Positions 13,601 to 56,093 of a stretch of DNA of 64,000 nucleotides are shown here, piece by piece. The number at the start of each line of letters is the position of its first letter. Within the stretch, counting starts at the first letter, position 1. Position numbers and translations under genes: made by a program. Origin of the DNA: Stegostoma tigrinum (taxonomy: Eukaryota); the NCBI RefSeq assembly GCF_030684315.1, contig NC_081379.1, positions 23,032,637 through 23,096,636 on the forward strand, in the 5' to 3' direction. The notes below the pieces were generated by a model. It did not search any database. It was not told the DNA's origin and saw only the letters and a program-made list of their open reading frames with translations.

Positions 13601-13678
13601 TTTAAACAAAAGCATAGATAATAAAGTGTGAAGCTGGAGGAACACAGCAGGCCAAGCAGCATCTCGGGAGCACAAAAG

Positions 13679-13710
13679 CTGACGTTTCGGGCCTAGACCC
13701 TTCATCAGAG
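13679..13710 (-). ncRNA. Minimal type I hammerhead ribozyme motif (PLE A inverted arm)
   Basis: Reverse complement ct-CTGATGA-a-gggtctaggccc-GAAA-cGTC-ag. Confidence 0.75.
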
Positions 13711-15604
13711 AGGGGGATGGGGTGAGGGTTCTGGAATAAATGGGAGGGGGGGGGGGCAGACCGAAGATGGAGAGAAAAGAAGATAGGTGGAGAGTAGAGT
13801 ATAGGTGGGGAGGTTGGGAGGGGATAGGTCAGTCCAGGGAAGACGGACAGGTCAAGGAGGTGGGATGAGGTTAGTGACAAAGGATGAGGTGCAGCTTGGG
13901 GGGAGGAAGGGATGGGTGAGAGGAAGAACAGGTTACGGAGGCAGAGACAGGCTAGGCTGGTTTTGGGATGCAGTGGGGGGAGGGGACGAACTGGGCTGGT
14001 TTTGGGATGCTGTGGGGGAAGTGGAGATTTTGAAGCTGGTGAAGTCCACATTGACACCATTGGGCTGCAGGGTTCCCAAGCGGAATATGAGTTGCTGTTC
14101 CTGCAACCTTCGAGTGGTATCGTTGTGGCACTACAGGAGGCCCATGATGGACATGCCATCTGAAGAATGGGAGGGGGAGTTGAAATGGTTCGCGACTGGG
14201 AGGTGCAGTTGTTTATTGCAAACCGAGCGGAGGTGTTGTGCAAAGCGGTCCCCAAGCCTCCGCTTGGTTTCCCCAATGTAGAGGAAGCCACACCGGGTAC
14301 AATGGATGCAGTATACCACATTGGCAGATGTGCAGGTGAACCTCTGCTTAATATGGAAAGTCATCTTGGGGCCTGGGATGGGGGTGAGGGAGGAGGTGTG
14401 GGGGCAAGTGTAGCACTTTCCTGCAGTTGCAGGGGAAGGTGCCGGGTGTGGTGGGGTTGGAGGGCAGTGTGGAGTGAACAGGGGAATCACGGAGAGAGTG
14501 GTCTCTCTGGAAAGCGTTCTAATGCCACCACTCCCGCACATCCCAGATGTGCAAGTTCTTCAATGACCGCAACTTTCCCCCCCAACAGTGGTCGAGAACA
14601 CCCTTGACCGCGTCACCCACACTTCCTGCAGCACATCCCTCACACCCCGCCTCTGCCACAACCGCCCAAAGAGGATCCCCCTCGTTCTCTCACACCACCC
14701 CACCAATCTCCGGATTCAACGCATCATCCTCCGACACTTCCGCCATCTACAATCCGACCCCACCACCCAAGACATTTTTCCATCCCCACCCTTGTCTGCT
14801 TTCTGGAGAGAACACTCTCTCCGTGACTTCCTTGTTCGCTCCACACTGCCCTCCAACCCCACCACACCCGGCACCTTCCCCTGCAACCGCAGGAAGTGCT
14901 ACACTTGCCCCCACACCTCCTCCCTCACCCCCATCCCAGGCCCCAAGATGACTTTCCATATTAAGCAGAGGTTCACCTGCTCATCTGCCAATGTGGTATG
15001 CTGTACGCATTGTACCCGGTGTGGCTGCCTCTACATTGGGGAAACCAAGCGGAGGCTTGGGGACCGCTTGGCAGAACACCTCCGCTCGGTTTGCAATAAA
15101 CAACTGCACCTCCCAGTCGCGAACCATTTCAACTCCCCCTCCCATTCTTTAGATGGCATGTCCATCATGGGCCTCCTGCAGTGCCACAATGATACCACCC
15201 GAAGGTTGCAGGAACAGCAACTCATATTCCGCTTGGGAACCCTGCAGCCCAATGGTATCAATGTGGACTTCACCAGCTTCAAAATCTCCCCTTCCCCCAC
15301 AGCATCCCAAAACCAGCCCAGTTCGCCCCCTCCTCCCACTGCACCACACAACCAGCCCAGCCTGTCTCTGCCTCCCTAACCTGTTCTTCCTCTCACCCAT
15401 CCCTTCCTCCCACCCCAAGCCGCACCTCCATTTCCTACCTACTAACCTCATCCCACCTCCTTGACCTGTCCGTCTTCCCTGGACTGACCTATCCCCTCCC
15501 AACCTCCCCACCTATACTCTACTCTCCACCTATCTTCTTTTCTCTCCATCTTCGGTCTGCACCCCCCCTCCCTATCTACTCCAGAACCCTCACCCCATCC
15601 CCCT

Positions 15605-15636
15605 CTCTGATGAAGGGTCTAGGACCGAAACGTCAG
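15605..15636 (+). ncRNA. Minimal type I hammerhead ribozyme motif (PLE A forward arm, sense to SF3A1)
   Basis: ct-CTGATGA-ag-ggtc-tag-gacc-GAAA-cGTC-ag. Confidence 0.72.
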
Positions 15637-16114
15637 CTTTTGTGCTCCTGAGATGCTCCTTGGCCTGCTGTATTCATCCAGCTTCACACTTCATTATCTT
15701 GGATTCTCCAGCATCTGCAGTTCCCATTATCACTTAAACAAAAGCATGCTGGCTTGAACTTTGATATCAGAGGGAGAAGTGTAATATTGAACAAGTGGAA
15801 GTTTGTAAAATTTAACAATTTGTATAATGTGCTTTATAAAGAAGTCATTTCAGGGTACATCAACCAACTTGTAAAGCTTAGTTCAGTTTATGATAGGACT
15901 CTTGTGATTTTGATTTTTAAAAATCTAGAGCGTGTTTTGGAATTTGAGTCAGGCTGTACTATTAATAGTGTGCTGGGGAAAGTGTCCAATTGGACTGCAA
16001 GATATGCTAGAATTGCAGCATTATCAGGTGAATACTGATTTTTAACTTCCCCCTTTCAAAGGGGCAAAGCTTATTTATTTTTTACGTTTTACATAACATA
16101 TATTTTCTTCACAG

Positions 16115-19922: not shown

Positions 19923-20433
19923 TGTTATATTACATTTATCAATGTAGTGTTTATATATTGATCTTAAAGCTTTTTTTTGTCATTTTGACATAATTGCTGG
20001 CCTTTGAATCAGACGTTGTAGGTTTGAGACTTGTTCTGTCTGTGCACATAATGTAGCATTATATCAAATTAAAGTGTTGAGTGAGCACTATGATATTGTT
20101 ATTCAGCAAAGCTCAACTGAGACTTCATCTGCCTGTTCCAGTGGGGAAGGTGTTGTCGAAGATCATGACAATTTTAAAAAAATACATTGGGAGTTCCGAT
20201 GTATATTCTTTTCTTAACCAGCGTTCTTGCCAGGCATAAAGTAGCTGCCAAATTTGTCTACCTAACAGTATTTCTTTGTCGTTTAGATAATTGAATTTTG
20301 TTCTCTATTTTCTTCTTCATCCAGAAGAATTTATACTATAATCGAGTGTTATTCTTCTGTTGGGACAGAAGTGGGAAAAGTAGATATGTGGTGGCAGTGA
20401 ATCTCAACAGTTGCTTAACCTTTCTAATTACAG

Positions 20434-20630
20434 GGCATTTCCCTCCTCCGACCACCCCAGAAGAACTTGGAGCTCGTATTTTGATGCAGGAGAGATATGA
20501 GAAGTTTGGGGAGAGCGAGGAAGTTGAAATGGAGGTGGAATCCGATGATGAAGTTGAAGAAACTGAGGATAAGCCAGAAGAGACTCCATCACAGTTGGAT
20601 CAAGATACACAAGTACAAGATATGGACGAG
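20434..20630 (+). CDS. SF3A1: SF3A1 exon 7
   Basis: HFPPPTTPEELGARILMQERYEKFGESEEVEMEVESD...QVQDMDE. Confidence 0.96.
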
Positions 20631-21613
20631 GTAAGATATAAAATGATCCTGGTTATTGATGTAAAAGTTTGAGTATATTGTAGTTTATCTTCATTATCTA
20701 AGGATCGTAGCATAATTGCTGTCAACTTTGCAAATTGCTTCCAGCATCACTGATTTAACTGTTGAAAGTCTAATGATGCCTTACGAAGACTTCAAAAATA
20801 TTGGTAAAGTTGGCAAAAAGGAGGTAATAACTATTGTAATGACAAATTTGGCTTATAAATGTCCTTGAATTGTGAATTAAGCAATAGTGATAATATTCAA
20901 TTCAGTACATTCAGCCTATTAGCAAGTCATATTAGATGCTGAGATGTCTTTCAGATAAATTGTGATAAGTGATTCAGCCATGGCCAGGAGCTAGTCTATT
21001 AACGTGACAAGGTTTTAGTTTTGAAATTAGTTTGTTTTTTTGAAAACTTGGAATTAATGCTGAATTTCACTTTAAGCAGACTTTGAGAAAACATTGCAGT
21101 TTTAGGCATTTGATATCTATAGTGTCACAGTGAACTTCTGTTAAAGTTTTAAAAACATGCATAATAATATAAATCATAGTATGTTTCTAAAGGGCTAACT
21201 TGATTTTCATGTTTCAAACTATAACTAACTTCTGGTAAAATGCCAAGTAAATATTAAAATGAATTGACTGTTCATCATCATAATATCAGTTTTAAGATTT
21301 CAACTACATGTCTCAATATTTATAAGCAATCTCAATCCACAAGAAATAATCTTACCGTATAGATTTGGAAAACAAGCGCTGGTCCAAATATATGTGGTTT
21401 TGCCTGACTTGGGTTTTTGTTCGTGGACTCTGTTGCAAGTTTTTTTTTGAAATGACTGGATTTGCTGAAGGTTTAAAATTTTTTCTCACATGGATATTTG
21501 CCCCCTTGACAATTCTGGAGATAGCACCAAGTAACTTTTGATTTGATCAATATCCTAAAAATGTGACATCAAGTCGTTGGTTTCCTTCAAGAACCTAACA
21601 TTTATTAGGATAA

Positions 21614-21720
21614 GGGTCTAGGATCTTTATTAGAAAGATCTCGGCCCGAAACATCAGTTCTCCTGCTCCTCTGATGCTGCTTGGCCTGCTGTCTTCATCC
21701 AGCTCTACACCTTGTTATCT
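21614..21720 (+). mobile_element. 107-bp PLE family 1 mini-insertion
   Basis: Matches the PLE 3' end from hammerhead stem II to ...ttatct; perfect TSD CATTTATTAGGATAA at 21599-21613 and 21721-21735. Confidence 0.8.
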
Positions 21721-22014
21721 CATTTATTAGGATAACTTTTTGTTTATGTATTGCATGACACAATCACAGGCATCATATGAAATAAACAAGGAAGTACTTA
21801 CTGTTTTCTGCACATGGGTCACTATATCGTGAATTCTTCAGTTTAACTGTTCCTTTGGTCAAAGATTCAAAGCACTTGCCCATAGGAGTGGGATTAATGA
21901 GTTTGAGCATCCATGTTATCAGTAATGATTTTCCTAGACATTTGGAAGCTCCGTCTTTTTTTTTCCCTAGCGTAGGGAAGAAAATACGAAATCGTTGGGG
22001 AAAAGCCATTCTAG

Positions 22015-25000
22015 TAAGGGCAGAGGGATGGGAGTAGGCCATTCAGCCCCTTGAGCCTGTTGCACCACTCAAGATCATGGCTGATGTGTGGCCTAACTCC
22101 ATATCTTTGCCTTTAGCCCATATCCCTTAATATCGTTGCTTAACAAAAAGTTAAATCTAACAACTGAGCAAGTATCTACTGCCATTTGTGGAAGAGAGTT
22201 CTAAACGTCTCCCTCACCTTCTATATAAATGTGTTTCCTAACATCTCTCATGAATGATCTGAACTGAATTCTCTGACAATTACTCCGCTGATTCTCAAAT
22301 TCCCAACCGATGGAAATAGTTTATCTACTCTGTGTTTTCGTGTTAATATCATGAACTTTTAGAACAGATTCTGCCCCCTTTAAATTCTGGAGAAAACAGG
22401 CCTAATTTCTATAATCCTTCCTACTAACTTAATTCCTGAAGTCCAGGTTTCATTCTTGAAAACCTGTGTTGTACTTCCTTTGGATCCATTGTATGCTTCC
22501 TATAGTGGTGCCCAGATCCGTAATCAATACTCCAGTTTGGGGCTAACCATGGTTTTGTATAACTGCAACATCAATTTTCCATCCTTTTACTCCAGTCCTC
22601 TAGATATAAAAGCTCGCATCCCCATTAGCTTTCTTAAATATTTTCTGTACCGATTTGCGACATTTTAAAGGTCAGTGCACTGGAACCCCCAAGTCTCTTT
22701 GAATATTAATTTCATACCAACTAGAAAGTATCCTGTTCAATCCCTTTTTGGGCCAAGATGGATAAGATCTCACTTGTTTGTGTTGAACTCCATCTGCCGC
22801 AGTTTTGCCTATTCACTTAGTCTATCAATATACCTTTGTAATTTTATGCTATTACTATACTGTCTACAAAGTTGCCTTACTTTATTATCATCAAATTTGG
22901 GTAAGTAACTTTCTTTGCCATTTAATAAATATGTGAATAATTTGTCCTTGACACAGATCCTTGTGGGACGCTACTGCTCGTACCTTTCCATTAATCCTAC
23001 TTTCTGTTGCCTGCCACTCGACCAATTTCCCAGCCACATCAGTAATGTCCCTTCAATTCCATCGACTTCTACCTTAACTAACAGTCTTTTACATGAGACC
23101 TTATCAAATGTCTTCTGGAAGTTCATATAAACAATATCCATAGACGTTCCCCTGTCCACTACCTTAGTCACTGCTTCAAAAAGTTGAGTAAGATTTGTCA
23201 GGCATGACATATCTGTCATGAATCCAAGCTGGCCATTGCTGATTACGTGAAAATTTTCAAGATTTTCAGTTACTTCATCCTTGATTTTAGACTCTAACGA
23301 TTTTCCCACCATAGATGGTTAGGCTCAAAAGCAGAAATTGTTGGAAAAGCTCAGCAGTACTGACAGTGTCTGTGGAGAAAAATCAAAGTGTTTAGGGTGT
23401 AGTGACCCTTTTTCAGACCCTTCTATGAAGGACGGTCACTGTACCCAAAATGTTAACTCTGCTCGCCAAAGATGCTGCCAGACCTGCTGAGGTTTTCCAG
23501 TAATTTCTGTTTTTGTGTTTGATTTCCAGCATCTGTAGCTCTTTCAGCTTTTTGTATAGGTGTTTGGCTAACTTGTCCTCCCTCGTTTTCCTCATCTGCC
23601 ATTCTTAAAGAAAAATGGAGTGACGTGCAGATTTCCAGTTCAGGGGCATGAATCTTGTATGAAGAGAACTGTGAAAGATATTAGTAAGGGTGTCAACAAT
23701 ATGCTCCTCTATTTCCTTTAACACCTTTTGGATGGAAATCGTTAGGCCTTGGAGGAATTTGTCACTCTTTAATTCCATTCATTTCTTCATTGCCAATGTT
23801 TTACTTGTGTTAATTTTATTCAATCGCTGTTCCTGATCCACGAGTAATTACCTCGAGACTTCGGCCAAGCAAGCTGACTTTTCTACTGTAAATTCTGAAG
23901 CAAATTAGTCATTCAACGTCTGCAATCTTTCCCATTGTCATTGACAATATCCCAACTTTCAGTTTTTAGTGCACCAACATTGCTCCTGACCATCCAGTTT
24001 CCCATTATGTGGCTAAAAAATTTCTTGTTGATTTTGTTTCATAATCCCTTTTAGTAGCTCTCATAAGCTGCTTTCTGGCCCTTTGTTGGTCTTTGTATCT
24101 TTCCCATTCAGCAAGATCTGTGCTGTTTGTTGACATTTTGTAAGCCCTTTCTTTTAGTATTTTGCTGTCCCTTATTTCTTTGGCTGCCCATGACTATGTT
24201 TTCTTTGAGGAATTTTTCCCTTTTGGGGTACATATGGATTTTAATGTTTAATGTTCCTTTAAACTTTCTCCATGTTTTTCCAGCTGTTTTACCCATTAGC
24301 AGATTTTCCCAGTTTACTATGAACAGTTTCTATCTCAGTTTGTTAAAACAAGCCGTACATAAATCATTTAATTTATTCCTTAACTCTCCACTGGTATGCA
24401 GAACTCTTATCTGGGCCATACACTGAAACCTATCCCTCAGTACTGATGCTTTATTCACCTGTTTATTATTTCTCTCTTCTGGTTTAATTGATACACTTCT
24501 TATAATTTTGCCATTACCTGCTATACTTGAAGTAGGATTCCAAACTGTTTCTTTACTCTGTCATGTTACTTGATTTTGAAACTGTATTGACTTCTCAAGA
24601 ACCCTCCCTGCCATTTATTGGTTTAAAGTCCTTGTGACCAACCTGTTTAACTTTTCAGCTAGGACACTGGGGATGTACTCCATTTGGGACCAAAGGTGCA
24701 GTTCTTTCCTGTCCCAATACTGATGTCAGTGCCTCACAAACGGGAATTCCCCTTTCCCACACTACTCCTTTAGCCATTCACTTAGTTCCCTAATTTTCTT
24801 ATCTCTGTGTCAATTTGCATGTGGCTCAGGTAATATTTCACAGATTATAAACCATCAGTTCCTTTTCTTTAATTTTTTTTCCTAATCCCTGATATTACCC
24901 AAATAGGATCTCTTGCCTATGTTGTTAGTCCCAACATGGGTCACAACAACTGGACCCTCCCCCTCCCCCTCCCATATCCTTTCAAGCTGGTTCAGAATGT

Positions 25001-25530
25001 CCCTTACCTTGGCACTAGGCAGGGAACACACCTTCACACCATACAGGGCAGTCAATCCAGCTTTCAGTTTCTGCTTTCATGTACTATTTGATGTACTTAA
25101 CCTACAGCGTGTGACTGCCTCCTGAAACGCAGCATTCAGGCAACTCTTCCCCCTCCCTAAATGTCGCGGTGTTTGACACTCAGAATCAAGCTCACCAACC
25201 CAACATTTTCTATAGGTATGTTTGCTGTGAACCACAGTAGGGTTCGCCAGCTTCTACATCACGTGGATGCATCACATTGCCTGGCCCTGCATCTCTTAAA
25301 TTATTTAAATTAGCTGTCAGTTCGTATTTTAAAATTTTCTGCTGGTCTTAAGGTTTTAATCTGTAAAATATTTCTCCAATTTACCTTGAACCTGAAAGCA
25401 ACTTGGAATAGATATTCAAATTACTTACCAACCTTTTTCTGTGATGTCACTTTTTCACTGTTTCTGATCCCTGAATCTCCTCCCCTGCTGGCCTGTCTCT
25501 CTGTCTCAGCTCTCAGGTAAGTCTGTAAGT
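22015..25530 (-). mobile_element. Long, internally deleted CR1 LINE retaining ORF1 esterase, ORF2 and 3' end remnants
   Basis: RT: QLGFMTDMSCLTNL...DIVYMNFQKTFDKV; ORF1 SGNH-like VCSLPSAKVRDILNQLERI...VVVTHVGTNNIG at ~24912-25031. Confidence 0.8.
23326..23555 (+). mobile_element. PLE family 2 non-coding fold-back mini-element nested in CR1
   Basis: Imperfect inverted arms ~23326-23416 and ~23422-23515, then tail gatttccagcatctgtagctc; decayed TSD atagatggttaggct / ataggtgtttggct. Confidence 0.65.
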
Positions 25531-25783
25531 TTGAAGACTTGGCCTTGTATTTTATTTCCTACTCAGACTCACCTCCTGCAGGCTCCTCTTCTCCTTCTGC
25601 CCCAAATTCCCACAACCTTACTTTCTTTTATCGAGCAGAAGCACTCACCAATGAGAGAAAAGGAGCAACCGATCACCCCTCCCCCACTTTTATCTAACTC
25701 CCTGTTTCATCAAACGGTTTAATTTATTTTAAATGCAATGCACAGTTCAACTTATTTTGACTTGTGTGATGGTTTGTTTTAAG

Positions 25784-25901
25784 GGATCAGATGAAGAAGA
25801 TGAAAGCCAGAAAGTCCCACCACCTCCTGATAATCCAATGCCTCCACCACTTCCTCCTACTCCAGACCAGGTTATCATTAGGAAGGATTATGATCCCAAA
25901 G
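25784..25901 (+). CDS. SF3A1: SF3A1 exon 8
   Basis: GSDEEDESQKVPPPPDNPMPPPLPPTPDQVIIRKDYDPK. Confidence 0.96.
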
Positions 25902-28898
25902 GTCAGTGTGCAAAAACTAAGGGAAGCTTGTGTAAATGCTATTGATTGGTCTCAAAACACTGATTTATCTCACAATTATTTTCATTAGGTTGCATTATTA
26001 GTCAGGAAGAAGTTAATGGAATCAAACAAATAGACAGTGTATTTCCCTGACAAAATGAACAATTTTCGAATTGGTATTGTAAAATTAAAAATTGAGGAAT
26101 TTATTTATCTTGATCTTGATCTTGGTGCTACCTTTATATTGTAACTATTCACTATAAATCAGCCATACTGTTTCCTTGTTCATTTCATCTATCTGGCATA
26201 AAACTAGAGAAGAATTGAGGAATTGACGATCTTTGCAATTTTATCATACACAGTAACAACTCTTTTAAAAAATCAAAAACCATGCCTTAAGAATATTTTA
26301 TGAAGCACTCAGTAAGAAGTATGCCACAACAGGACCACCTCTGACATGAAAAGATTGTCAGAGCTGGATTGATTCCATTAATTTTTTTGATAAATTTGTT
26401 CACAGGATGTCAGTGACTCTGGCACTTCAGACAGTGATTATATTTACTTATGATGAAGTGAAATAAGTTTGTTTTAATACATTAATTATCTTGTAAGTTT
26501 TGATAACTCACTCCCACCACTATCAGTTCTGAGCCAAAAAGTTGGAGGCAATGTAATGTGGGAGCTGAATCTTAAGTTGACACCTAGATCCATGTAGAGG
26601 GATAATTTGCAGCATTCACCTGGGCTCTTGTGGCATAGTATTAGTGTCCCTACCTCTGGGCTACAATATCCAGGTTCAATTCCTAACTGCACCAGCCATG
26701 TGTCTCTAGTAGTGGCAAGGGCCACTACAGCCCCCTGCTAAATTCTCCATGGTGAACTTGTTAAGTTTGAGGAGAGTAATGAATGTAAGCAGCACTTTCT
26801 AAGTGTGCTGTTGAAATAAAATGTTGAGAACCCCAAGCCATTAGGTTGTGGGAAAAAATCGCTATTACAATAGGCAATAAAACTCACTTGGATTTTCCAC
26901 ATGTATAAGTATAAAACTGACACCATGCTGGTGCAATTTTTGTAAACTGCAAATTCAGAGACTTGTATTTTCAGAGGTGGAGATCAAAGGATCAGTGTGC
27001 GATGATGAAGAACTTCCAGCTGTTTGGTTCTGAAGTTCGTTTTAATGATGGAACAAATTATTATTCACACTGCACCATCAAATCCTGGTTTCCACTTTTT
27101 AGTCTGATGTTCTTGCCCATCGATCATGGTGACATTGTCTTCACATCCTCCCATCCCCAGTCCTAGAAATTTCTAATCACCCTGTTCAGACAAATTCAGA
27201 TGCATGTCTTGAGGCAGGTGGAACTTGACCCTGGATCTTCTATCCCATGGGTAGGAACCCCAGCACTGTGTCAAGAGCCCAGTTGAATGCTGCACTTTAG
27301 CCCAGTGCATAGCTGGAGTCTTCATTTTCTGATGCTACTCACCTCATTTCCTGCCAAACTTTAGCACTGCCCACAGTTCCTACCTGCTGCCACTAAATTC
27401 CTTCAAATGATTAAAGGCCAGTATTTTCCTCAAACCTGCAAACCCTACCCTCACACCAGAAAGAGTGAATTTTATACGAATTAGTAGTGCATATGTCAAC
27501 TTCACTTGCTTTATAAAACACTTGGCCTCTGAGCCGACAGGATTTGCATTCACGATCCATTACAGGGTTTGACCATGTAAGCCAATACAATTGTTAACTG
27601 GCTACAAATAGCTATTTAGCATGCACTCAACTCAGCAGAATATATTTCATATACCTGTTAACTTAATAAACATCATTCACCACTCAGTAACTAAAGAAAT
27701 AAAATACTTTCACAAAGATCAAAAAGGACTTGCACTGTCTCACCTCAGCATTCTCCAACAGCCAGGCAACGGTTACACTGCAGAAGCATGCAAATTAATT
27801 GTGCACACTTGGTTAACAGCAGTGTTTGTAACATTCTTTTACGGATTAGAAATACAGTAAGTTACGTTAGGGTTCCTAATTATCTGTGTGTGTGAATAGT
27901 TCTAACACATTGGCCCCTCCTAATTAAGATAACACTTATACTGCATTGTTGCAGATGCTGTCTTTAACATCAAACTAAAATTTTATGAACCTCTTCATGT
28001 GGCCGCCCATGTTGGAAGAGAAGATGCTCTTCTAATGTCCTAACCAATGTGTATTTAAATCACCTGAAAGACATGCCATTTATCTTATTGTTGTTTATGG
28101 GAGTTGCCATGTAATATGTTGCCTTAATTGTAAGAACAAATGTAAGACTACATTTCTTACCCTTTCCTCATTGCCACAATTGCATTTCAAGTTGAACATT
28201 ATGTTGTTTTGGGTCTGAAGTTAGATGTAGGCAAGAGCTTGTAGGACTGATGAGATTCCCCTTACTAAGGGACATTAGTGAACCAATTGCGTTTTACGAC
28301 AATCCATCTAATGACATCTAAATTATAGCAGTGATTGCATTTTCAGAGTAAAGAGAATGTTAAAAAGCAAAGTTAAAATATTTATATAAGATATGTTTAT
28401 ATGATTTCATATATTTAGTGCAGTTCCAGTGTTCTGTCAGACACTTAACAGGTTGTCATTTAGTTTATTTAAGAAGTACTAGTGTGTATAGCTCTGAATT
28501 CAAAGTTTCTGTGCATCAGATTGATTTTGTTTTTGTGGTATGTATACATTTACACTACAATGTTTCATTTGTTGGCCAGCTGCATAACCTGAAATTAGAT
28601 TAATAGTTAATTTTTAATGTATGTTGTTTTATGACTCTTCATGGCATCAGGCATTATTTCTACTGTATAGATGCAAAGCTAAATAGAATGGCACTGGACT
28701 ACAATTTTGCAGTCTCATTTTGACCTGTGCTGGGAGGCTATAGCATATGTACTTCACTTTTTTGAAATGTAAAGAAACAAATCCATTTAATATCTTGTGA
28801 ATTTGCACTTTGATTTGTGAGCTTAAATATGTGTCTTTTATTCAATTACTGAAAAGTTTCATCTAAAATATGTATATATTTTATTTATACTCCTTTAG

Positions 28899-29084
28899 CT
28901 TCAAAACCAGTGGCTGGTACACCTGCACCTGATGAATATCTCATCTCTCCAATCACTGGGGAAAAGATTCCTGCCAGCAAAATGCAAGAGCATATGCGTA
29001 TTGGGCTGCTGGATCCTCGCTGGTTGGAGCAACGTGAACGTTCCATTAGAGAAAAGCAGAGTGAAGATGAAGTATATGCTCCAG
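28899..29084 (+). CDS. SF3A1: SF3A1 exon 9 (followed by a GC donor)
   Basis: ASKPVAGTPAPDEYLISPITGEKIPASKMQEHMRIGLLDPRWLEQRERSIREKQSEDEVYAP; CAG|gcaagt. Confidence 0.95.
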
Positions 29085-30558
29085 GCAAGTGTTGCTTGTG
29101 ATGCTGCAGGAAACTGGGAAGAGGTGCAAGGATAGCTCTGTCAATTAAGAATGACAGCAGCATATAAGAGTGAAATGGCTTTCGTTTTGGAGATCAGACT
29201 ATAGAGTCAGTTTGGGAAGAGATGAAAAATAGTAAAGATAAGAATTTACTGTAGGATTGGTTTAGAGGACCACTGGCAGCTACCTCACTGTACAATAGGA
29301 TATACAGCAGAAATCATGGTGGCTTGCGAGAAAGGTATGGAATTTAATACTGGAGGATTCTAATTTATAAATAGGTCGGATGAATCAGATTGGCAAGGAT
29401 AACCTGGATGATGAGTTCATGTTTTCTGGATGGCTTCTTAGAGAACTATGTTCGAGAGACAGTCAGAGAAGAGCACACTGTACTGGATTCGGTAATGTGC
29501 GAGTTGGAGTTAATTAATTAGCTCTTTTAGCCTGAGGAAGCGAAGAGTGAATTGAACTACTCGGGATAATTTTGGGGCACATAGAGCTGGCTAAAGTGAT
29601 CTAGAAAATTAGGTTAAGGGATAAATCACTAGAGACAGTGACAGACATTTAAAAAATACTGAGAAAAGATGCATTCCAGTGAGAAAGAAAGATTTTAAGG
29701 AAGAACACACCAGCCCTAAAACAAGAGAGTTTAAAGTTTGTATCCAAGTGAAAGAAAAAGTTTATGATTTGGCAAAGTGGGTGGCAGAACAAAAGATTGT
29801 ACAGAATATGAATATCAGCAAAGAATAACACTAAAAGGGTGAATTTGAACTGCAAGAGACATGAATGGCTGTGATCTTATTGAATGGTGGTGCAGGCCAA
29901 AGGGGTCAAATGGCCTACTCCAGCTCCTAATTTGTATGTTTATTTATTGTATGTATGTATGTTCTTATGTTGCGTTTTATTTCTTAGATTTGACTGTAAT
30001 TGTCCCAGGAAATTCCTTTCCCTTGAATGTGCTTAAGATTGAGTGAACTTATTACTGTCAGCGGCTAAGTTTGAAAATAGAAACATATTTTCAGTTCACT
30101 TAAATTTCTGAAAATATTCTCATAGCACAAACCCAGTTTGTCCTCTTGATCTTACACATTTTGCAAACAACCCTGCATCTGTCAGTGCCAATTTGTAACC
30201 AGTAGAGGGTCTGGAAGAACCACTTCATCACATCACTGCTTAAACTCAGAATTCACACAGCAAGCGTTTAATGTTTCACTTGATCCTGTTAAATATAAGT
30301 GTGCCCTCTTTTTAGCATCCTAAAACACACTCTAGTCGTTGGCTCATTGTTAATGTGATCTTTTTGTTTTAAAATGGTCACTTAAAGACAGTGTAGGAAC
30401 AGCAGTTGTAAGCCTTGGTTGATGTTAAATTTTGTTCCATTGACTAATTGATGAGGAATGCTACCTGCTGTGCTCTCTCTAGACCATTTTCTTTTAATCT
30501 ATAAAACAGTAAATTTTAGTGAAAAATTATGCAAGTTTTGAGATTTTATTATTGACGT

Positions 30559-31600: not shown

Positions 31601-31643
31601 TTTTCATATAGATTTTGATCTTTTGAGCTGTTTTTTCCGTCAG

Positions 31644-31765
31644 GTCTGGATATTGAAAGTAGTTTGAAGCAGTTGGCTGAACGACGTACTGACATCTTTG
31701 GTGTGGAAGAAACAGCCATTGGTAAGAAGATTGGTGAAGAAGAAATCCAGAAACCAGAAGAGAAG
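31644..31765 (+). CDS. SF3A1: SF3A1 exon 10
   Basis: GLDIESSLKQLAERRTDIFGVEETAIGKKIGEEEIQKPEEK. Confidence 0.96.
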
Positions 31766-31844
31766 GTATAAACATCTATTATTGAGAAAATCTTTTGTTA
31801 CTCACAAGTTGTTCAAATGATGTCTTGATGCAGTTTTTTAAGAT

Positions 31845-42720: not shown

Positions 42721-42723
<3 letters not shown>

Positions 42724-42789
42724 TGTCATTTTGTTTATTCTAGTCTTCAACTATATGCAAACACCTTAAAATATAATAAATTTTAAAAC

Positions 42790-45110: not shown

Positions 45111-46295
45111 TTTTTTTCTAATAATAAACTTCTTTATTTTGGCAAGACTTATTTAGGCCTGGCCAACTGGGTTTTAACGAAACAAACCAAAGCTCATATC
45201 ATCATCCGATTGTTCAGACTCTTCCTTCTTTAACTTCTTCACTTCCTCTTTGACAACAGCTGGAGAACCCTCAACCACGGGGGCCACAAAAGTCAACAGA
45301 TTAGCCAAGGAAGCCATCACGTTTTCAGCTAATGGGAAACAGTAATCTGTCTCTAAAGCAATAGTTAGCACCATCGTGTAGCTGTTGATGGAGTGTTAAA
45401 TAGAGGCAATGATTAAATAACCAATCTGCAGCATACATCAGAGAAGCAGGAAGTCTGATGTTTCGGGCCTAGACCCTTCTTCAGAAACGTCAGCCTTCCT
45501 GCTCCTCTGATGCTGCTTGGCCTGCTGTGTTCATCCAGCTCCACACCTTGTTATTCTCAGATTCTCCAGCATCTGCAGTTCCTCCTATTTCTGCAGCATA
45601 CACTGGTCATGTTTGCAAATTCCATTCAGGAAACATTTCTGCAGTTTCTTTAGAGATATCCAGGACCTTACGGTTGTACACACGGCTATTTTCATAAACT
45701 TGCATGATCAGCAAGGCCATTGGAAAAAGGACAGATGGTCAACATTATCAGCAGGTGGCTTCACTAGCTCCCAAATTGTCAACAACCTTGATGAGGTGTA
45801 CATCACTCAAAATTTCAGTGGTACCTCTGAAGATCTTAGTGGTGACACCCAAAGTTTGGCAGAAGGACGTTTTCTCAGGATCTAAACTCGTATTTTAACT
45901 TGACACGGTAAACTCACAAGGGACAATCACCATGTGCAGCAGCTGGTCACGGACTTCACTCAAATCCTCCTTGATGAATACAAAGTCAATGTTTCTACGC
46001 ATATGTAATAGAAGTGTTTCCAGACCAAGATTATTCTCCAGATGTCCTCAAATGGCATTGCACATTATGGTATTCTTACCCATCAGTTCAATGACCTTAT
46101 CACACAGCGATATCTGTATAAGGGCTGCATCTGTTTAGATCCAACATTGCTAAACATTTTGGCTAGTCATCCAACAGTTAAAAGTTTTCAAAAAGTTGTT
46201 AGACTTCCACATAGTTCTGTCTTCCGTGGGCATCTTTATGTGCTTCCAAGGATTGCCACTGACTGGTATAAAGACAAGATTTTACTTGAGCTCCA
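45111..46295 (-). pseudogene. RPLP0: Processed pseudogene of 60S acidic ribosomal protein P0
   Basis: ATG at 46233, MPTEDRTMWKSNNFLK...KNTIMCNAI.GHLENN...EESEQSDDDMSFGLF (stop 45174-45176); intronless, frameshifted; AATAAA at 45133-45138 and short poly(A) remnant. Confidence 0.93.
45438..45589 (+). mobile_element. 152-bp PLE family 1 micro fold-back inserted into the RPLP0 pseudogene
   Basis: Inverted arm 45438-45484 carrying the hammerhead core on minus, forward arm starting at GAAACGTC plus tail; TSD TCTGCAGCATACA at 45425-45437 and 45590-45602. Confidence 0.85.
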
Positions 46296-46650
46296 GACAG
46301 AAATATTTTTATAATATTGAATTAAATATAGCTATGTGGAAGTTGTTGTTGGAATATCCTGCAGGAGGAGCTAAGTCCAAAGCAAAACTAAAATATCACT
46401 AGTCAAACTGTTAATTATTTCTGTATATTCAAATTGAAGTTCAGCACTTACTATTCTAGTTAATAGTTTATTATTTGTGAAAATAATTCATGTGATCATG
46501 AGCACATATTTCTAGAAGCCAGCCGACAAATCTAATTACACCACACCATTGACCCAAATGAAAACTGATTTAGCATTTTCACAAATCCCTTAGCCCTATC
46601 TTAATATCTGCAGATTATCTTCTCTAAAACTAATCTGCTTCCATTGCTTC

Positions 46651-48710
46651 AGAGATAGCAGGAACTGCAGATGCTGGAGAATCTGAGATAACAAGGTGCA
46701 GAGCTAGACGAACACAGCAGCCCAAGCAGCATCATAGGAGCAGGAAGGCTGACATTTTCAGCCTAGACCCTTCTTCAGAAATAGTGGAGGGAAAGGGGGT
46801 TCTGAAATAAATAGGGAGAGAGTGGGAGGTGGATAGAAGATGGAAAGCAGAGAAGATATGTGGAAAGGAGACAAACAGATCAAAGAGACGGGGATGGAGC
46901 CAGTAGAGGTGAGTGTAGTTGGGGAGGTAGGGAGGGGATAGGTCAGTCCAGGGAGGACGGACAGTTCAAGGGGCCAGGAAGAGGTTAGTAGCTGGGAGAT
47001 GGGGGGTGGGGCTTGGAGTAGGAGGAGGGGATAGGTGGGAGGAAGGACAGGTTAGGGAGGTGGGGACGAGTTGGGCTGGTTTTGGGATGCAGTTGGGGGA
47101 GGGGAGATTTCGAAGCTTGTGAAATCCGCATTGATACCATTGGGCTGCATTGGGCATGCCTGCATCTTCATAGGTTATGTGGAACAATCCCTCTTCTGTA
47201 GCTACACTGGCCCTAATCCCCACCTCTTCCTCCGTTACATTGATGACTGTATCGGTGCTGCATTGTGCTCCCACAAGGAGATCGAACAGTTCATCCACTT
47301 CACCAACACTTTCCACCCCAACCTTAAGTTCACCTGGGCCATGTCCAATACTTCTCTCTCCTTCCTGGACTTCCCTGTCACCATCTCTGTCAACACCTAG
47401 AAACCGATATCCATTTCAAGCCCACCAACTCCTACAGCTACCTAGAATACCCCTCCTCCCACCCACCTTCCTGCAAAAATGCCATCCCCATTCTCAATTC
47501 CTTCACCTCTGCTGCATCTGCTCCCAGGATGAGGCATTTCACACCCATACATCTCAGATGTCCTCATTTTTCAAGGACTGCAACATCCCCACTTCAGTGG
47601 TCGAGGACACCCTTGACCATGTGTCCCACATTTCCCACAACTCATCCCTCACATCTCCTCCCCGCAATAACAACTAAAACAGAATCCCCCTCATCCTCAC
47701 GTACCACCCCACCAACCACCGGATCCAAATCATCCTCCAACACCTCCGCCATCTGCAATCCAACCCCACCACCAAAGAGATTTTTCCCTCCCCACCCTTA
47801 TCTGCTTTCCGGAGAGACCACTCTCTCTGTGACTCACTTGTCTGCTCCACACTCCCCTCCAGCCCCACCACACCCGGCACTTTTCCCTGCAACCGCAGGA
47901 AGTGCTACACTTGCCCCCACACCTCCTCCCTCACCCCCATCCCAGGCCCCAAGAAGATTTTCCACATCAAGCCAATGTTCACCTGCACATCTGCTAATGT
48001 GCTATACTACATCGCTGTTCCTGTTGTGGCCTCCTCTACATCGGGGAAACCAAGCGGAGGTTTGGGAATTGCTTTGCAGAACACCTACGCTCAGTTTGAA
48101 CAAAACAACTGCGCCTCCCAGTCACAAACCATTTCAACTCCCCCTCCCATTCCACAGACAACATGTCCACCCTGGGCCTCTTGCAGTGCGACAAAGATGC
48201 CACCCGGAGATTGCAGGAACAGCACCTCATATTCCGCTTGGGAACCCTGCAGCCCAATGGTATCAATGCGGATTTCACAAGCTTCTAAATCTCCCCTCCC
48301 CCAACTGCATCCCAAAACCAGCCCAGCTCGTCCCCGCGTCCCTAACCTGTCCTTCCTCCCACCTATCCCCTCCTCCTACTCCAAGCCCCACCCCCCATCT
48401 CCCAGCTACTAACCTCTTCCTGGCCCCTTGAACTGTCCGTCCTCCCTGGACTGACCTATCCCCTCCCTACCTCCCCACCTACACTCACCTCTACTGGCTC
48501 CATCTCCATCTCTTTGATCTGTTGGTCTCCTCTCCACCTATCTTCTCTGCTATCCATCTTCTATCCACCTCCCACTCTCTCCCTATTTATTTCAGAATCC
48601 TCTTCCCCTCCACCATTTCTGAAGAAGGGTCGGGGCCCCAAATGTCAGCCTTCCTGCTCCTATGATGCTGCTTGGTCTGCTGTGTTCATCCAGCTCTGCA
48701 CCTCATTATC
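46651..48710 (+). mobile_element. Penelope-like element B: short tailed arm on minus (46651-47149), long tail-less arm on plus (~47156-48710) with RT C-terminus and GIY-YIG
   Basis: FLRYIDDCIG...FTNTFHPNLKFT...LSFLD; endonuclease remnant; TSD tctgcttcc(a/t)ttgct at 46634-46648 and 48711-48725. Confidence 0.9.
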
Positions 48711-48809
48711 TCTGCTTCCTTTGCTATTCTGAGTTCTCTGTGTTTTGGTCCCTTGACTCCTCTGCAATTGGCTGAGCTATTAGAAGTCTCAGCTTGGCAC
48801 TTGGAGGAA

Positions 48810-50234: not shown

Positions 50235-52770
50235 GTAAGACCAGAAGACATAAGTGCTGAATTAGGCCATTCAACCATCAAGTCTGCTCTGCCAGTCGAT
50301 CACAGCTGATAGGTTTCTCAACCCACTTTCCTGGCTGCTCCTTAATCCCCTAACTAATCAAGAGCCTATCTGTCTCTGTCTTAACTACACTCAAAGACTT
50401 GACCACCACAGCCGTCTGCAGCAATGAGGTCCACAGTCATCACTGTCTGGATGAAGAAATTCCTCCTCATCTCAGTTCTGAAGGGGCGTCTCTTTAACCT
50501 GAGGCTATGCCCCTGGGTCCTGGTCTTACCTCCTAGTGGAGGCATCTTCTCCACATCCACTCTGTTTTTGCCTCTCAGTATCCTATAATTTTCAATCCCC
50601 CATTCCCCTTCATCCTTCTAAACTCCATCAAGTACAGACCCAGAGTCCTCTTCATATGACAAGCCCTTCAATCCTAGGACAATTGTTGTAAACCTCCCGT
50701 GGTCACCCACCAATGCCAGCACATCCTTCCCTAAAAATGGGCCAAAACTGCTCACAATCTTCCAAACTCGGTCTGACCAGAACCTTATACAGCTTCAGCC
50801 ATACATTTCCACTCTTCCATTCCAGCCCTCTTGGAATGAATGTTAACATTGCATTTGTCTTCCTAATCACCAATTAACCTACATGTTAACCTTAAGAGAA
50901 CCCTGAACTGGGGCTCCCAAGTCTCTTTGCACTTCAGATTTTCAAAGCCATTCCCTGTTTAGAAAATAGTTTATACGTCTATTCTTCCTACTAAAATGTA
51001 TAACCTCACACTTCACCACATTATATTCCATCTGCCACTTCTTTACCCACTCTCCTAGCCTGTCCAAGTCCTTCTGCAATCTCCCTGCTTCCTCAACACT
51101 ATCTGCCACTTCTTTACCCACTCCTTTAGCCTGTCCAAGTCCTACTGCAACCTCCCTGCTTCCTCAACACTATCTGCCACTTCTTTACCCATTCTCCTAG
51201 CATGTCCAAGTACTTCTGCAACCTCCCTGTTTCCTCAACACTATCTGCTCCTCCATCTGCCTTTGTGTCATCTCCAAACTTAGCAACAATTCTCTTAGTT
51301 TCTTTGTCCAGATCGTTAATGCGTAATGTGAATAGTTGTAGTTCCAAAACTGACCCTGGAAAAGCTCCTCTAGTCACCGGCTGCCATCTTGAAAACAATT
51401 CTTTTATCTCCACTCTCTGTTTCTCCCAACCAGGAAATCCTCTATCCATGCCAGTACCTTGCCTCCTAACACCATAGGTTCTAATCTTATTCAGAAACAT
51501 CTTGTTTAAGGCCTGCTGGAAATCCAAATAGATTAAATCAACTGGCTGTCCTTCGTCTAATTTCCTCATTACATCCTCAAAGAATTCTAACAGATTTGTC
51601 AGGCATGACTTCTCTTTGACAATGCTACACTGACTGCACCCTATTTTATCCTGCACTTGCAAGTATTCTGCAATATTAGCCTTAGAAATGGACTGCTAAA
51701 ATCTGACCAATGACTGAGGTCAGACTAAATGGTCTATAGTTTCGAGTCTTCTGCCTGCCTCCCTGACTCCAATGATTCCTGAAAGATCACCACCAATGCC
51801 TACACAATATCCTCATCTATTTTCTTCAAAACTCTCAGGATGTAATCTATCTGGTTTGGGTGATTTATCCACTATTAGATTTTCAGCTTCCCCAGCATCT
51901 TCTTCTTACTGACGGTCACTACCCTCATCTCTGCCCCGATTCTCCTGAAGTTCAAGTATGTTGCTGGTGTCTTTCACAGTGAAACCTGATGCAAAGTATC
52001 TATTCCTCTGTCAGTTCTTTGTTCCCTGTTACTACTTCACCAGCCTCATTTTCCAGCAGTCCAATGTGCACTCTTGCCCTTGTCTTACCTTTTAGATATC
52101 TAGAACACTCTTGCAACTTTCTTTCTTGTTGCTAGCTAGCTTATTTTTATATATCATCTTCTCCTCCTCTTACTGCTTTTTCAGTTAACCTCTGCTGTTT
52201 TTAAGGTGTTCCCAATTCTCTGGCTTCTTGCTAATCTTCACCACATTGTATGCTTTCTCTTTTGCTATTGTAGTGTTCCCAACCTTCTTTCTCAGCCAAA
52301 GTTGCTTTATCCTCTCTTCAATATGTTTTGTCTTCCTTAGGAGGAATTCCTGCTGTACCTCCCAAATTACCCCCCAGAAACTCCTGCCAATACTGTTCCA
52401 CTGGCTTTCATCCCAGGCTTTCCTTCCAATCAACTGTGGCCTGCTGTTTCTTCATGTTTTTGTAGTTACTTTTACTCAGTTCTAATATTGATACATCCGA
52501 CACATTCTCTCTCTCTCAAACTGCAGGGTGAATTCTATTATGTTATGGTCACTGCTGCCTGGGGTTCCTTCACCTTCAGCTCCCTATTCAAGTATGCCTC
52601 ATTACACATCACCAAATCCAGAACTACCTGTTCCCTAGTGGGCTGTACCAGAAGCTGCTCTAAAAAATCCATCTCTTAGACATTCTGTGAATTCTTTTTC
52701 TTGAGAACTGCTACCAGCCTGATTTTCCCAGTCCACCTGCATATTGACCACATGATTATTGTAATAGTGC
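50235..52770 (-). mobile_element. CR1 LINE, ~2.5 kb of decayed ORF2 plus 3' end
   Basis: KSCLTNLLEFFEDV...VDLIYLDFQQALNK...KFGDDTK. Confidence 0.85.
51030..51248. repeat. Three tandem copies of a 71-bp unit within the CR1
   Basis: atctgc recurs at 51030, 51101, 51172 and 51243; units differ by a few substitutions. Confidence 0.9.
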
Positions 52771-54181
52771 ATTACATGTGTATTACCTGTACGACATTCA
52801 ATGTTGTATCCACAAACTGAATGTTTTTTAGCTAGTGAATATCGCTGTGCATTATTTGTAGAATGGATCTAACATGGAGGATAATGATTTGCTGTGAGAA
52901 TAATTAGGCCCTACATGTTCCCACCAGTGGTGAGACAAAGAATTAGATGCCAAGGAATACAGAGATATTGAAAGGCTACTGAGATAAGGAAGACAAAGTC
53001 ACTGAAGGACTAAAAACAAGGGCAGACTTTTAAATTTTGAGGTATTGATTCAGTTTTCTACAAAAGTTTACCTTCAAGATACAAGTGAGTGGCATTATAT
53101 TCCTCCAGCTTGTATCTTCAGTTATGTGTTCAGATTAGAAAAGCTAAGATCGATCACTCCAAAGCAGAGAAGATAAAGTGGAGATTTAATAGAGGTGCTC
53201 AATATTATGAAGATTTTGATCAAGCATTGGGAGATACGGTTTCCAATGCCAGGTGGGTCACTAACCAGGGGACACAGAATTAAGATAATTGACAAAAGAA
53301 CAAAATAGTGGATTCGAATTTTTTTAATATATGAGTGTTGGAATCTGGAATCTGACCTTCTCTTACTCCTAACTTACATTAATATTGAATCCACTGTTAG
53401 GGTGGTGGAAGCAGATTCAATAGTAATTTTCAAAGTCAAATTAGATGAATATGTAAAAGAAAGAAAGGACAGAGGGATTAAAACTAATTTTCTAGGTGCT
53501 GCTGACCGCCACTCACAAGGTCCTCACCTCACATTCTCCTCTTTAATGATTTTTTGAAATCTTCTTTTTCAAGCAAAAGAAGAGACCCAACTTGCTTATC
53601 TTTCCAAATATGTGTGCTCTCACATCTCTGGTATCATTCTTGTAATTACTCTTCATTCTCTCCAATGCTTATGATATGGCACCCAGAATTGCACACAGTC
53701 CTCTAAATGTGGTCTAACCAAGAGTCAATACAAGTTTAGCATGATGTCCCTGCTTATCATTTTTTTGTAGCTTTTTATGTTATGGCCTTTCTAATCAGTG
53801 ATTGATGTACTTTTACACTGAGATCTCTTTGTTTCTCTACCCTCCTGGTCTGATTATTCCAGTTTATAGAATAACACACTAGACAGGTCAGACTCTAGAG
53901 ACTTGACACACCAATTTTAGGTATAGCTCATATTTTCCCTTTTAAATTTCTTACCCAACAGATAAGGTTGTAAATGTTTTATTTTGGCAACCTTCTGTAC
54001 ATTCGGCAGACGTGATTCTCTCAGTGTCTCCTCAAGACACATAAACAGGCTAACTGTCTGGCTTTTCTCTGATGTTGACTAATTTGAGGATACTAAAACC
54101 ACTTAATACTTACATCTAAGATAATAAAATGTGAGGCTGGATGAACACAGCAGGCCAAGCAGCATCTCAGGAGCACAAAAG

Positions 54182-54213
54182 CTGACGTTTCGGGCCTAGA
54201 CCCTTCATCAGAG
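54182..54213 (-). ncRNA. Minimal hammerhead ribozyme motif (PLE C inverted arm)
   Basis: Reverse complement ct-CTGATGA-a-gggtctaggccc-GAAA-cGTC-ag. Confidence 0.78.
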
Positions 54214-55285
54214 AGGGGGATGGGGGGAGGGAACTGGAATAAATAGGGAGAGAGGGGGAGGCGGACCGAAGATGGAGAGTAAAGAAGATAGGTGGAGAGG
54301 GTGTAGGTGGGGAGGTAGGGAGGGGATAGGTCAGTCCAGGGAAGACGGACAGGTCAAGGAGGTGGGATGAGGTTAGTAGGTAGCTGGGGGTGCGGCTTGG
54401 GGTGGGAGGAAGGGATGGGTGAGAGGAAGAACCGGTTAGGGAGGCAGAGACAGGTTGGACTGGTTTTGGGATGCAGTGGGTGGGGGGGAAGAGCTGGGCT
54501 GGTTGTGTGGTGCAGTGGGGGGAGGGGATGAACTGGGCTGGTTGAGGGATGCAGTGGGGGAAGGGGAGATTTTGAAACTGGTGAAGTCCACATTGATACC
54601 ATATGGCTGCAGGGTTCCCAGGCGGAATATGAGTTGCTGTTCCTGCAACCTTCGGGTGGCATCATTGTGGCAGTGCAGGAGGCCCATGATGGACATGTCA
54701 TCAAGAGAATGGGAGGGGGAGTGGAAATGGTTTGCGACTGGGAGGTGCAGTTGTTTGTTGCGAACTGAGCGGAGGTGTTCTGCAAAGCGGTCCCCAAGCC
54801 TTTTGTCCATCATGGGCCTCCTGCACTGCCACAATGATGCCACCCGAAGGTTGCAGGAACAGCAACTCATATTCCGCCTGGGAACCCTGCAGCCATATGG
54901 TATCAATGTGGACTTCACCAGTTTCAAAATCTCCCCTTCCCCCACTGCATCCCTCAACCAGCCCAGTTCATCCCCTCCCCCCACTGCACCACACAACCAG
55001 CCCAGCTCTTCCCCCCCACCCACTGCATCCCAAAACCAGTCCAACCTGTCTCTGCCTCCCTAACCGGTTCTTCCTCTCACCCATCCCTTCCTCCCACCCC
55101 AAGCCGCACCCCCAGCTACCTACTAACCTCATCCCACCTCCTTGACCTGTCCGTCTTCCCTGGACTGACCTATCCCCTCCCTACCTCCCCACCTACACCC
55201 TCTCCACCTATCTTCTTTACTCTCCATCTTCGGTCCGCCTCCCCCTCTCTCCCTATTTATTCCAGTTCCCTCCCCCCATCCCCCT

Positions 55286-55317
55286 CTCTGATGAAGGGTC
55301 TAGGCCCGAAACGTCAG
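55286..55317 (+). ncRNA. Minimal hammerhead ribozyme motif (PLE C forward arm)
   Basis: ct-CTGATGA-a-gggtctaggccc-GAAA-cGTC-ag. Confidence 0.78.
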
Positions 55318-56093
55318 CTTTTGTGCTCCTGAGATGCTGCTTGGCCTGCTGTGTTCATCCAGCCTCACATTTTATTATCTTGGAATCTCCAGCATCTGCA
55401 GTTCCCATTATCTCTAATACTTACATCTAGTTCTGTTGGTCTGAAGACTTACACTAACTAAACTGCCCTTCTGCTGGGATGGATTCTTATCTTTTCAGCT
55501 CAACATTCTTGTGGCCCCGTGGCCTGCCCTTCTCTGGTAATTAAAACTCAAGTCAACCAGAAGCAGCAAATACATCTTAAGTCATAAGACTTTTCATAAA
55601 GATTACCTTTACCTCACAATTTGAAATGAAAATTTCTGGCCCTTACGTAAAATAAAAGACCTTCATACCACTGAAATCCAAAATCTTGCTTACCTTTACT
55701 TTAGAGTCCAAGTCCTTAAAATAATGAAAATATATAACGAACTTGTCTTACAATGTATTTTCATCTTCCAAGTAATGTGACCTCCTTGTACTTCTGACCA
55801 AAATGTACATTCTCAGATTTATCTATGTTGTACTTCACTTGCCAATTATTTGCCCATTCTGTAATAATGTAATCCTGTATTTTGTTGCAATTGATTATTT
55901 CCTCCTCAATATATTCCGCTTCCCAGTTTGATTCCATTTACAAATTTAGATATTGTGATTTTGATTTCAAAGCTCATACCATTAATATAAATGGTCAGCA
56001 GTGGTGGCCCCAGCAGTGGTGATCCTTCTGGAACACCACTTACCATTTGCCACTTACCTTGAATAACTGCCTTTTACACCCAGTCTGTACTGC

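Follow-up and report, generated by a model that had tools for sequence, protein, structure and literature searches.

How does a retroelement come to be inserted as a palindrome, with both of its 3' ends pointing outward and a short tail on one arm alone? The question arises from a 64,000 nt stretch of the 3.2 Gb genome of Stegostoma tigrinum (NC_081379.1; the whole stretch is called the window below), in which self-BLAST and junction analysis resolve three large insertions, E1, E2 and E3, as head-to-head inverted repeats with their 3' ends facing out. An earlier note on this DNA had proposed that the three share one plan of outward 3' ends, target site duplications (TSDs) of 14-15 bp and a tail on one arm each, and that at least six insertions of the family lie within the 64 kb; the plan recurs in all three, and six insertions are confirmed (Table 1). 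Its coordinates stand for E1 and E3, while E2 starts at 46649, two bases ahead of the 46651 it gave, and the one-arm tail measures 34-37 nt rather than 34-35 nt. The fold-back insertions are real truncated copies of a very abundant Penelope-like element (PLE), a known kind of retroelement, and we believe, with a probability of roughly 0.7 on the evidence of sequence, that they would arise at a staggered cut of 14-15 bases whose two ends are both primed on one RNA, at two internal sites about 35 bases apart.

A canonical endonuclease-positive (EN+) PLE unit is described as a pseudo-LTR (pLTR; LTR, long terminal repeat) with an adjacent inverted, 5'-truncated copy and an optional tail of 30-40 bp (PMC8557442, PMC3846280), and the shark element combines a frame for reverse transcriptase (RT) and GIY-YIG EN, a pLTR, an internal tail of 30-40 bp, an inverted 5'-truncated copy and a TSD. 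In the natural copy L011 a frame stays open for 898 aa, with matches to RVT_1 (E 6.6e-6) and to GIY-YIG (E 0.015) that fall short of the Pfam cut-offs, and carries in order DKG, YIDD, a CX4CX2C linker and YIGET; the linker, CNRRKCYTC, recurs in E1. Homologues at 50-53% identity carry both RT and GIY-YIG domains, and the nearest named protein relatives, at 73-93% identity, belong to the carpet sharks Chiloscyllium, Rhincodon and Stegostoma. A Pfam search of the window fragments gave zero RT or EN matches and a PDB sequence search gave none, and the intact autonomous open reading frame (ORF) that the earlier note proposed to look for did not appear, none of the seven full-length copies translated being uninterrupted from start to stop.

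On the element scale used here, 0 is the final base of TTATCT at the tail-less boundary, the tail ends near +35, C3 of the hammerhead motif is -92 and the predicted cut falls after -65. In a separate set of 20 near-full-length loci, selected for 5' sequence, the whole unit spans 3,602 bp between tail ends (L137), and 12 of the 20 carry a direct upstream repeat, the partial tandem that defines a pLTR; five of these repeats stop at -27 to -91 and seven reach -163 to -1609. The tail (34-37 nt) continues into the 5' untranslated region (UTR) in all seven full-length copies printed, with the ATG about 38 bases on. Neptune and Nematis are distinguished by a CX2-5CxxC linker that precedes a C-terminal EN, and the shark element resembles the Neptune clade in its RT, linker, C-terminal GIY-YIG EN, DKG and YIDD (PMC8557442). 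By this linker, which lies upstream of YIGET in E1 and from which the earlier note had rightly suspected Neptune, the element appears to be of Neptune type in a sense that takes in Nematis, which has the linker too and is not separated from Neptune here.

Other memberships were considered and rejected. Penelope and Poseidon require that there be no Zn-finger-like linker, and one is present; Naiad and Chlamys require an N-terminal EN and no canonical hammerhead, where we find a C-terminal EN and a hammerhead motif; and non-LTR retrozymes are described as tandem arrays of short hammerhead-bearing monomers (10.64898/2026.07.22.740005), where the 98 family clusters of our genomic blocks are fold-backs, solos or two-piece clusters, with zero arrays. 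The 1,186-codon frame of L012 was likewise set aside as a full ORF: the 3' UTR at L012:47-2940 has expanded to about 2.9 kb of purine/pyrimidine-skewed, low-complexity tandem repeat that keeps the frame open. Within the 5' repeat of L135, L147 and L148 (about -50 to +50), a short upstream frame runs from just past the hammerhead across the tail and ends ahead of the main ATG, and at L133:3538-4032 two tailed inverted arms of equal length (-160) stand in tandem, preceding a long tail-less copy.

Insertions were counted in four unbiased 200 kb blocks, in 40 loci anchored on young EN matches (20 chosen for long frames, 20 by rank) and in the window; excluded beforehand were 11 fold-backs without one outer end and, in one block, copies 2 and 3 of a segmental repeat of 24 kb. 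Exactly one tail is present in 81 of the 88 complete fold-backs (blocks 42/45, anchored loci 35/39, window 4/4), or in 77/84 when the window's own four are left aside, against an expectation of at most 50% under independent choice (P ~2e-17). The same is true of 18 of 20 small fold-backs that end at the predicted hammerhead cut, one of the 20 being two-tailed, and, as judged from BLAST ends, of 10 of the 11 near-full-length copies with both outer ends. TSDs of at least 12 bp flank 65 of the 88 fold-backs and 0 of 150 random flank pairings, so the fold-backs are not chance arrangements; 30 of 46 young pairs have an exact TSD of 12-17 bp, which in 19 is 14-15 bp long. With bases shared by element end and TSD assigned to the TSD, the final element base in these 30 pairs lies at +31 to +43 on the tailed arm and at -10 to +1, with one at -29, on the tail-less arm, so that the tail-less boundary, put forward as fixed, holds within a few bases and not to the single base. 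Both boundary sites end in TTATCT or a similar motif, as the earlier note had seen, and CCAGC precedes in E3, a similar stretch in E2.

Could such palindromes be artefacts of assembly? Zero short-read contigs bridge the window junctions by 31 letters on both sides, and the runs possibly derive from the assembly's own sample; at E3 and E1 the contigs from this one sample enter the outer junctions by 21-27 bases, short of the 31-letter rule. Nonetheless, the TSD counts (65/88 against 0/150), a mean divergence of 2.5% between arms, the tail on one side, and the recurrence of these ends and joints in short-read contigs make this explanation hardly credible.

In the unbiased blocks there are 98 family clusters, or 127 per Mb, which bears out the earlier suggestion of a very abundant system; an EN domain search returned 247,936 first-look candidates, which is not a copy number. 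The claim that palindromes are the default product is too strong: among the 92 block insertions having a 3' end, 48 are fold-backs and 44 single arms, and 36 of the 45 complete block fold-backs are minis, by which we mean that both arms are at most 130 nt long.

The earlier note had further argued for two opposed priming events on element RNA, one on a tailed and one on a tail-less template. Opposed priming is supported, both by the one-tail count and by the 27 long pairs, in 16 of which the tail-less arm exceeds the tailed one. Two RNAs with different 3' ends would account for the two end types, and the palindromic helix III of the hammerhead could pair two RNAs (PMC4209133); the tail, however, is internal in full-length copies, source variants (211 concordant calls, 53 discordant) and length class are common to both arms, and random pairing would give mixed ends in at most half of cases rather than in 81/88. 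We therefore find two templates distinctly unlikely, and in this the earlier note was probably wrong. Because the tail belongs to the interior of the element and passes into the 5' UTR, separate tailed and tail-less RNAs are unneeded; a single RNA carrying two internal start sites is the simpler assumption, and it matches in vitro results for PAc, a Poseidon element of the green anole with a predicted dimeric protein, in which both strands are cleaved and extended and two internal RT start sites bound the tail (PMC11167929). In the shark, a protein dimer would bind the two similar TTATCT-ending RNA sites and make the staggered target cut of 14-15 bases; each target end would be primed at a different one of the two start sites, the tail being the stretch between them; and both cDNAs would extend 5'-ward until their ends were joined head to head.

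An alternative route to one tail is for both ends to be made tailed, the EN then trimming one arm at the tail-less boundary during resolution, and this would likewise yield one tail and shared variants. EN-mediated resolution has been proposed for the tail (PMC8557442); the anole enzyme is reported to prefer ATT, which the boundary here contains, and the Drosophila EN to need the tail for recognition (PMC11167929). RT nevertheless starts at both tail ends in vitro (PMC11167929), and the tail-less end adjoins an intact TSD of 14-15 bp that trimming would need to preserve, so that we regard trimming as unlikely and priming of both target ends at two sites on one RNA as the better account.

The relation between the arms speaks to the same issue. 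The longer arm is the tailed one in 11 of the 27 long pairs and the tail-less one in the other 16, and arm lengths are uncorrelated among the 25 pairs having two long arms. At the same time, the 2.5% divergence between arms is lower than the 5.1-5.2% between insertions, and polymorphic calls upstream of the hammerhead agree between arms in 211/264 and disagree in 53, the agreement being weaker (39/74) in the short end region. Among the 45 complete block fold-backs six have both arms long and only three are mixed, where 12.5 mixed would be expected (P 4e-4); length class is therefore set jointly for both arms, as expected if one RNA site templates both. There is no sign that the RT switches from one RNA to another at the hammerhead, linkage across it remaining high (r2 0.67-0.88 for main subfamily sites in 51 arms).

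A single cDNA or antisense template might also fold back and copy itself into the inverted arm, a model proposed from the junction palindromes of rotifer PLEs (PMC3846280). Self-copying would give near-identical arms, and many mini junctions are symmetric. In 16 of the 27 long pairs, however, the tail-less arm has extra upstream sequence and yet no tail, so that neither arm is a subset of the other, and the long junctions are mostly asymmetric, with overlaps of -7 to +2 bases or short inserts. Since 81/88 fold-backs are one-tailed and the tail-less arm is so often the longer, neither arm is a plain copy of the other; for the long class self-copying is largely refuted, unless a longer double-stranded intermediate serves as template and is then cut, and overall we think it very unlikely.

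Where arms stop upstream is equally patterned. Of 140 arms, 56 end at -99 to -90 and only four at -100 to -130, and a genome-wide count gives 5,927 exact head-to-head junctions immediately 5' of the hammerhead, where the best-supported joints in short-read contigs are also found. In the first 50 junctions listed at -96 the inserts vary; five C bases stand ahead of -96, and junctions of the main subfamily include two of them at most. Run-off from an RNA end fits this pile better than pausing, because the stop falls after the RT has passed the hammerhead and not in front of it. In both shark subfamilies -96 fits initiator-type motifs, which is weak evidence in pyrimidine-rich DNA. In D. virilis Penelope, transcription is described as starting inside the pLTR (PMC2377424). 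A splice acceptor at -96 was rejected, no AG preceding it in either subfamily. At 200 sites a lone G or C stands at -94, where a cap-derived extra base is possible, as is untemplated addition. In L131, L140 and L132 a -94/-96 unit is joined to a position inside the ORF, and this looks like a jump that followed run-off; long arms and partial tandems cross -96 without a scar, which read-through with in-register jumps and a circle both fit.

The fold-backs of about 220 bp might instead form a separate family, resembling miniature inverted-repeat transposable elements or short interspersed elements and copied from few masters. They are very common, at 36/45 complete block fold-backs, and some junction forms recur (one form at 200 sites; single contigs at high depth). 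Their junctions nevertheless vary base by base, they occur in several subfamilies with the arms agreeing each time, and in TSD length and in the one-tail rule they do not differ from the long copies, all of which renders a separate family highly improbable. As an observation in its own right, the mini junction joining 13710 to 15693 with a three-T insert is found in each of the three runs in 1-2 contigs of depth 130-170, whereas unique flanks have a depth of 5-7, and this exact form has therefore been multiplied.

The hammerhead itself is a recurrent motif, its minimal core giving 65 matches in 800 kb and 0-3 in each of five shuffles; a search of Rfam at gathering scores gave 0 matches. It has the core boxes, helix II, palindromic helix III and short helix I of a minimal type I hammerhead, with the first four pairs of helix II kept in 164-168 of 171, two pairs of helix I in 161-163 of 171, and the third and fourth in 11 and 31. 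The core boxes, the extra base between positions 9 and 10.1, the G10.1-C11.1 pair, the palindromic helix III and the short helix I are all as described for metazoan PLE hammerheads, and the 2 bp helix I of the young shark subfamily is as in D. virilis Penelope (PMC4209133). In rarer, older relatives from the blocks and anchored loci helix I is 4 bp long and its changes are paired, and helix II is longer; because of these relatives, bases -96 to -93 are recognized as exactly the 5' strand of helix I. The hammerhead claimed for both arms is borne out in E1 and E3 and not in E2, where both arms fail the core pattern (intact in 4/6 large arms overall). For a role of hammerheads on both strands we found no supporting evidence; a hammerhead on each strand follows from fold-back geometry.

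Junctions near the predicted cut at -64 number 751; a symmetric form, with the four post-cut bases at its centre, accounts for 38 of the first 50 and about 570 overall; the same form occurs 110, 38 and 21 times at three control four-base palindromes, these patterns not being of equal length or equally tolerant of CpG. At -64 there are 3,288 arm starts, as against 316 at -66, and 57 of the first 100 at -64 have the symmetric form. The 20 minis that end here come from at least three subfamilies, both arms agreeing, and in L164 a tandem copy starts again at -64. Shuffled sequences fold about as stably as the end region (z -0.7 to 0.4). The arm pile at the predicted cut is less clear than the pile 5' of the hammerhead, and, all considered, we would put cleavage in vivo, which in a minimal type I hammerhead follows C17, at about even odds.

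Template state could then determine insertion size. RNA beginning near -96, the likely transcript start, would give minis of about 220 bp, and RNA cut by the hammerhead at -64 smaller minis; RNA continuous upstream, through read-through of the 3' repeat or as a unit-length circle, would give long arms and partial tandems; a cDNA running off the RNA end may jump to another position; and the second hammerhead would be a by-product. Circular RNA has been suggested for PLE hammerhead elements (PMC4209133). Taken as a whole, this fossil record of run-off, in which a dimer uses one site per strand, cDNAs stop at -96 or at the hammerhead cut at -64, and long copies and tandems come from continuous, possibly circular, RNA or from jumps, is a tentative proposal that we would not yet bet on. 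If it is true, the -64 stops become genomic evidence of PLE hammerhead cleavage in vivo, and the regeneration of pLTRs is explained.

Several observations weigh against the two-site priming model or its extension to the hammerhead. In the anole study no difference in the PAc start site was seen between the two strands, one-site-per-strand pairing within a target was not looked at, and hammerhead cleavage is dispensable in vitro, with zero RNA-seq ends at the cut (PMC11167929). Seven of the 88 fold-backs break the one-tail rule (six tail-less, several of them old or at a locus edge, and one two-tailed). Single-arm copies are tailed or tail-less equally often (20 and 19 of 39); only 6/39 have a TSD of at least 12 bp, and some apparent single arms conceal a very short second arm (L037, L015). 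Later gene conversion could partly explain the shared variants, the arms of E3 being 99.8% identical. Non-symmetric arm starts, about 1,410 at -64, are no commoner there than at -57 (1,380), and the predicted folds of one or two copies lack an active hammerhead. Read-through and circle are not separated, the 5' and 3' copies of partial tandems differing by 2.4% against 2.8-3.1% between loci (11 loci).

In LINE-1 twin priming both target ends are primed on one RNA, which yields non-overlapping inverted pieces, whereas in the shark a shared 3' stretch is copied into each arm, starting at two fixed sites. Strong-stop transfer, known from LTR elements, involves a short cDNA that reaches the 5' end of its RNA, runs off it and can then jump; the scheme for the shark element has no tRNA primer or integrase. 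The closer parallels are with PLEs. Like canonical EN+ PLEs, the shark copies have a head-to-head inverted arm, often a tail at one end, a TSD, 5' truncation and partial tandems; unlike those units, most shark fold-backs lack any ORF, and the tail, described there as optional or often one-sided, is here one-sided in 81/88. The 14-15 bp TSDs compare with 8-10 bp in the rotifer PLE cases described. With PAc the shark element shares a tail bounded by two sites, a hammerhead in the pLTR and tandem organisation (PMC11167929). In that account, however, the PAc ORF starts within the hammerhead, the tail is coding and the start sites lie in an AC-rich stem-loop, whereas the shark tail lies in the 5' UTR and both shark sites end in TTATCT. 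In Schistosoma, hammerhead pairs are described on opposite strands, 100-700 bp apart (PMC4209133).

Earlier papers thus already describe inverted copies, tails often confined to one end, TSDs and minimal hammerheads on opposite strands (PMC8557442, PMC3846280, PMC4209133); the counting of tail pairing is new here. Our literature search found no paper on PLE insertion structure in sharks or counting tail pairing or run-off sites, although subscription papers and Repbase or Dfam entries may hold more. Since neither the element nor any one of its features is of a new kind, the value of the system lies in its copy number: some hundreds of thousands of copies turn questions of mechanism, such as the start site for each strand, the template end and ribozyme cutting, into counts. 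They also give base-level predictions, at -96, -64, 0 and +35, for rapid amplification of cDNA ends and in vitro work, and they seed the genome with very many short perfect palindromes.

Table 1. Penelope-like insertions and their parts in the window (window coordinates).
Feature	Position	Strand	Remarks
E1, whole insertion	13616-15733		34 nt tail on right arm; arms 94% identical over 905 columns
E1 TSD	13602-13615 / 15734-15747		exact, 14 bp; sequence match
E1 tail-less arm	13616-14515	-	3' end at 13616, hammerhead, 3' UTR, EN domain; ~937 reference bases
E1 inner junction	14516-14528		13 bases without BLAST match to either arm
E1 tailed arm, 5'-truncated	14529-15733	+	RT thumb end, Cys linker, GIY-YIG EN, 3' UTR, hammerhead, tail
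E1 Cys linker CxxxxCxxC	14882-14908	+	
E1 YIGET of GIY-YIG EN	15032-15046	+	
E1 right-arm minimal hammerhead motif	15603-15640	+	core start 15607, predicted cut after 15634
E1 mirror hammerhead	core start 13708	-	predicted cut after 13681
E1 tail	15700-15733	+	34 nt; between the two putative RT start sites
E2, whole insertion	46649-48710		35-37 nt tail on left arm; arms 94% identical over 471 columns
E2 TSD	46634-46648 / 48711-48725		15 bp, 1 mismatch
E2 tailed arm, older subfamily	46649-47149	-	tail at left end, decayed hammerhead, 3' UTR
E2 tail-less arm	47150-48710	+	longer than tailed arm; RT catalytic YIDD region, linker, frameshifted EN, 3' UTR, decayed hammerhead
E3, whole insertion	54119-55414		34 nt tail on right arm; arms compared over 581 columns (99.8%)
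E3 TSD	54104-54118 / 55415-55429		exact, 15 bp
E3 tail-less arm	54119-54801	-	682 bases; hammerhead core start 54211
E3 tailed arm	54804-55414	+	EN end, 3' UTR, hammerhead core start 55288, predicted cut after 55315
E3 tail	55381-55414	+	34 nt
Short tail-less solo copy, older subfamily	21614-21720	+	15 bp TSD 21599-21613 / 21721-21735; disrupted hammerhead
Mini fold-back	45438-45589		152 bp; minus arm from hammerhead start (45487), tailed plus arm; 13 bp TSD 45425-45437 / 45590-45602
Short tail-less solo fragment	56473-56558	+	no TSD found

Two of the unbiased blocks hold repeats of another sort. L071-L089 (G000:C5:60.00-60.19 Mb) is a CA-rich, strand-biased satellite of about 186 kb (A 48%, C 41%, T 1%) with zero PLE copies, and in L094-L099 (G000:C14:30.03-30.09 Mb) the 24 kb segment stands in three copies that all have the same PLE insertions. 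Within the window, 20295-35612 contains exon-like frames of a splicing-factor gene (weak PRP21_like match, E 0.001), which we take to be SF3A1, and the solo copy at 21614-21720 sits between these frames. An RT fragment of a different retroelement, LINE-like in appearance, lies at 30556-31518 (RVT_1, E 7e-14), frames resembling it occur at 22971-23318 and 51126-51695, and a 71 bp unit is present in three tandem copies at 51030-51248.

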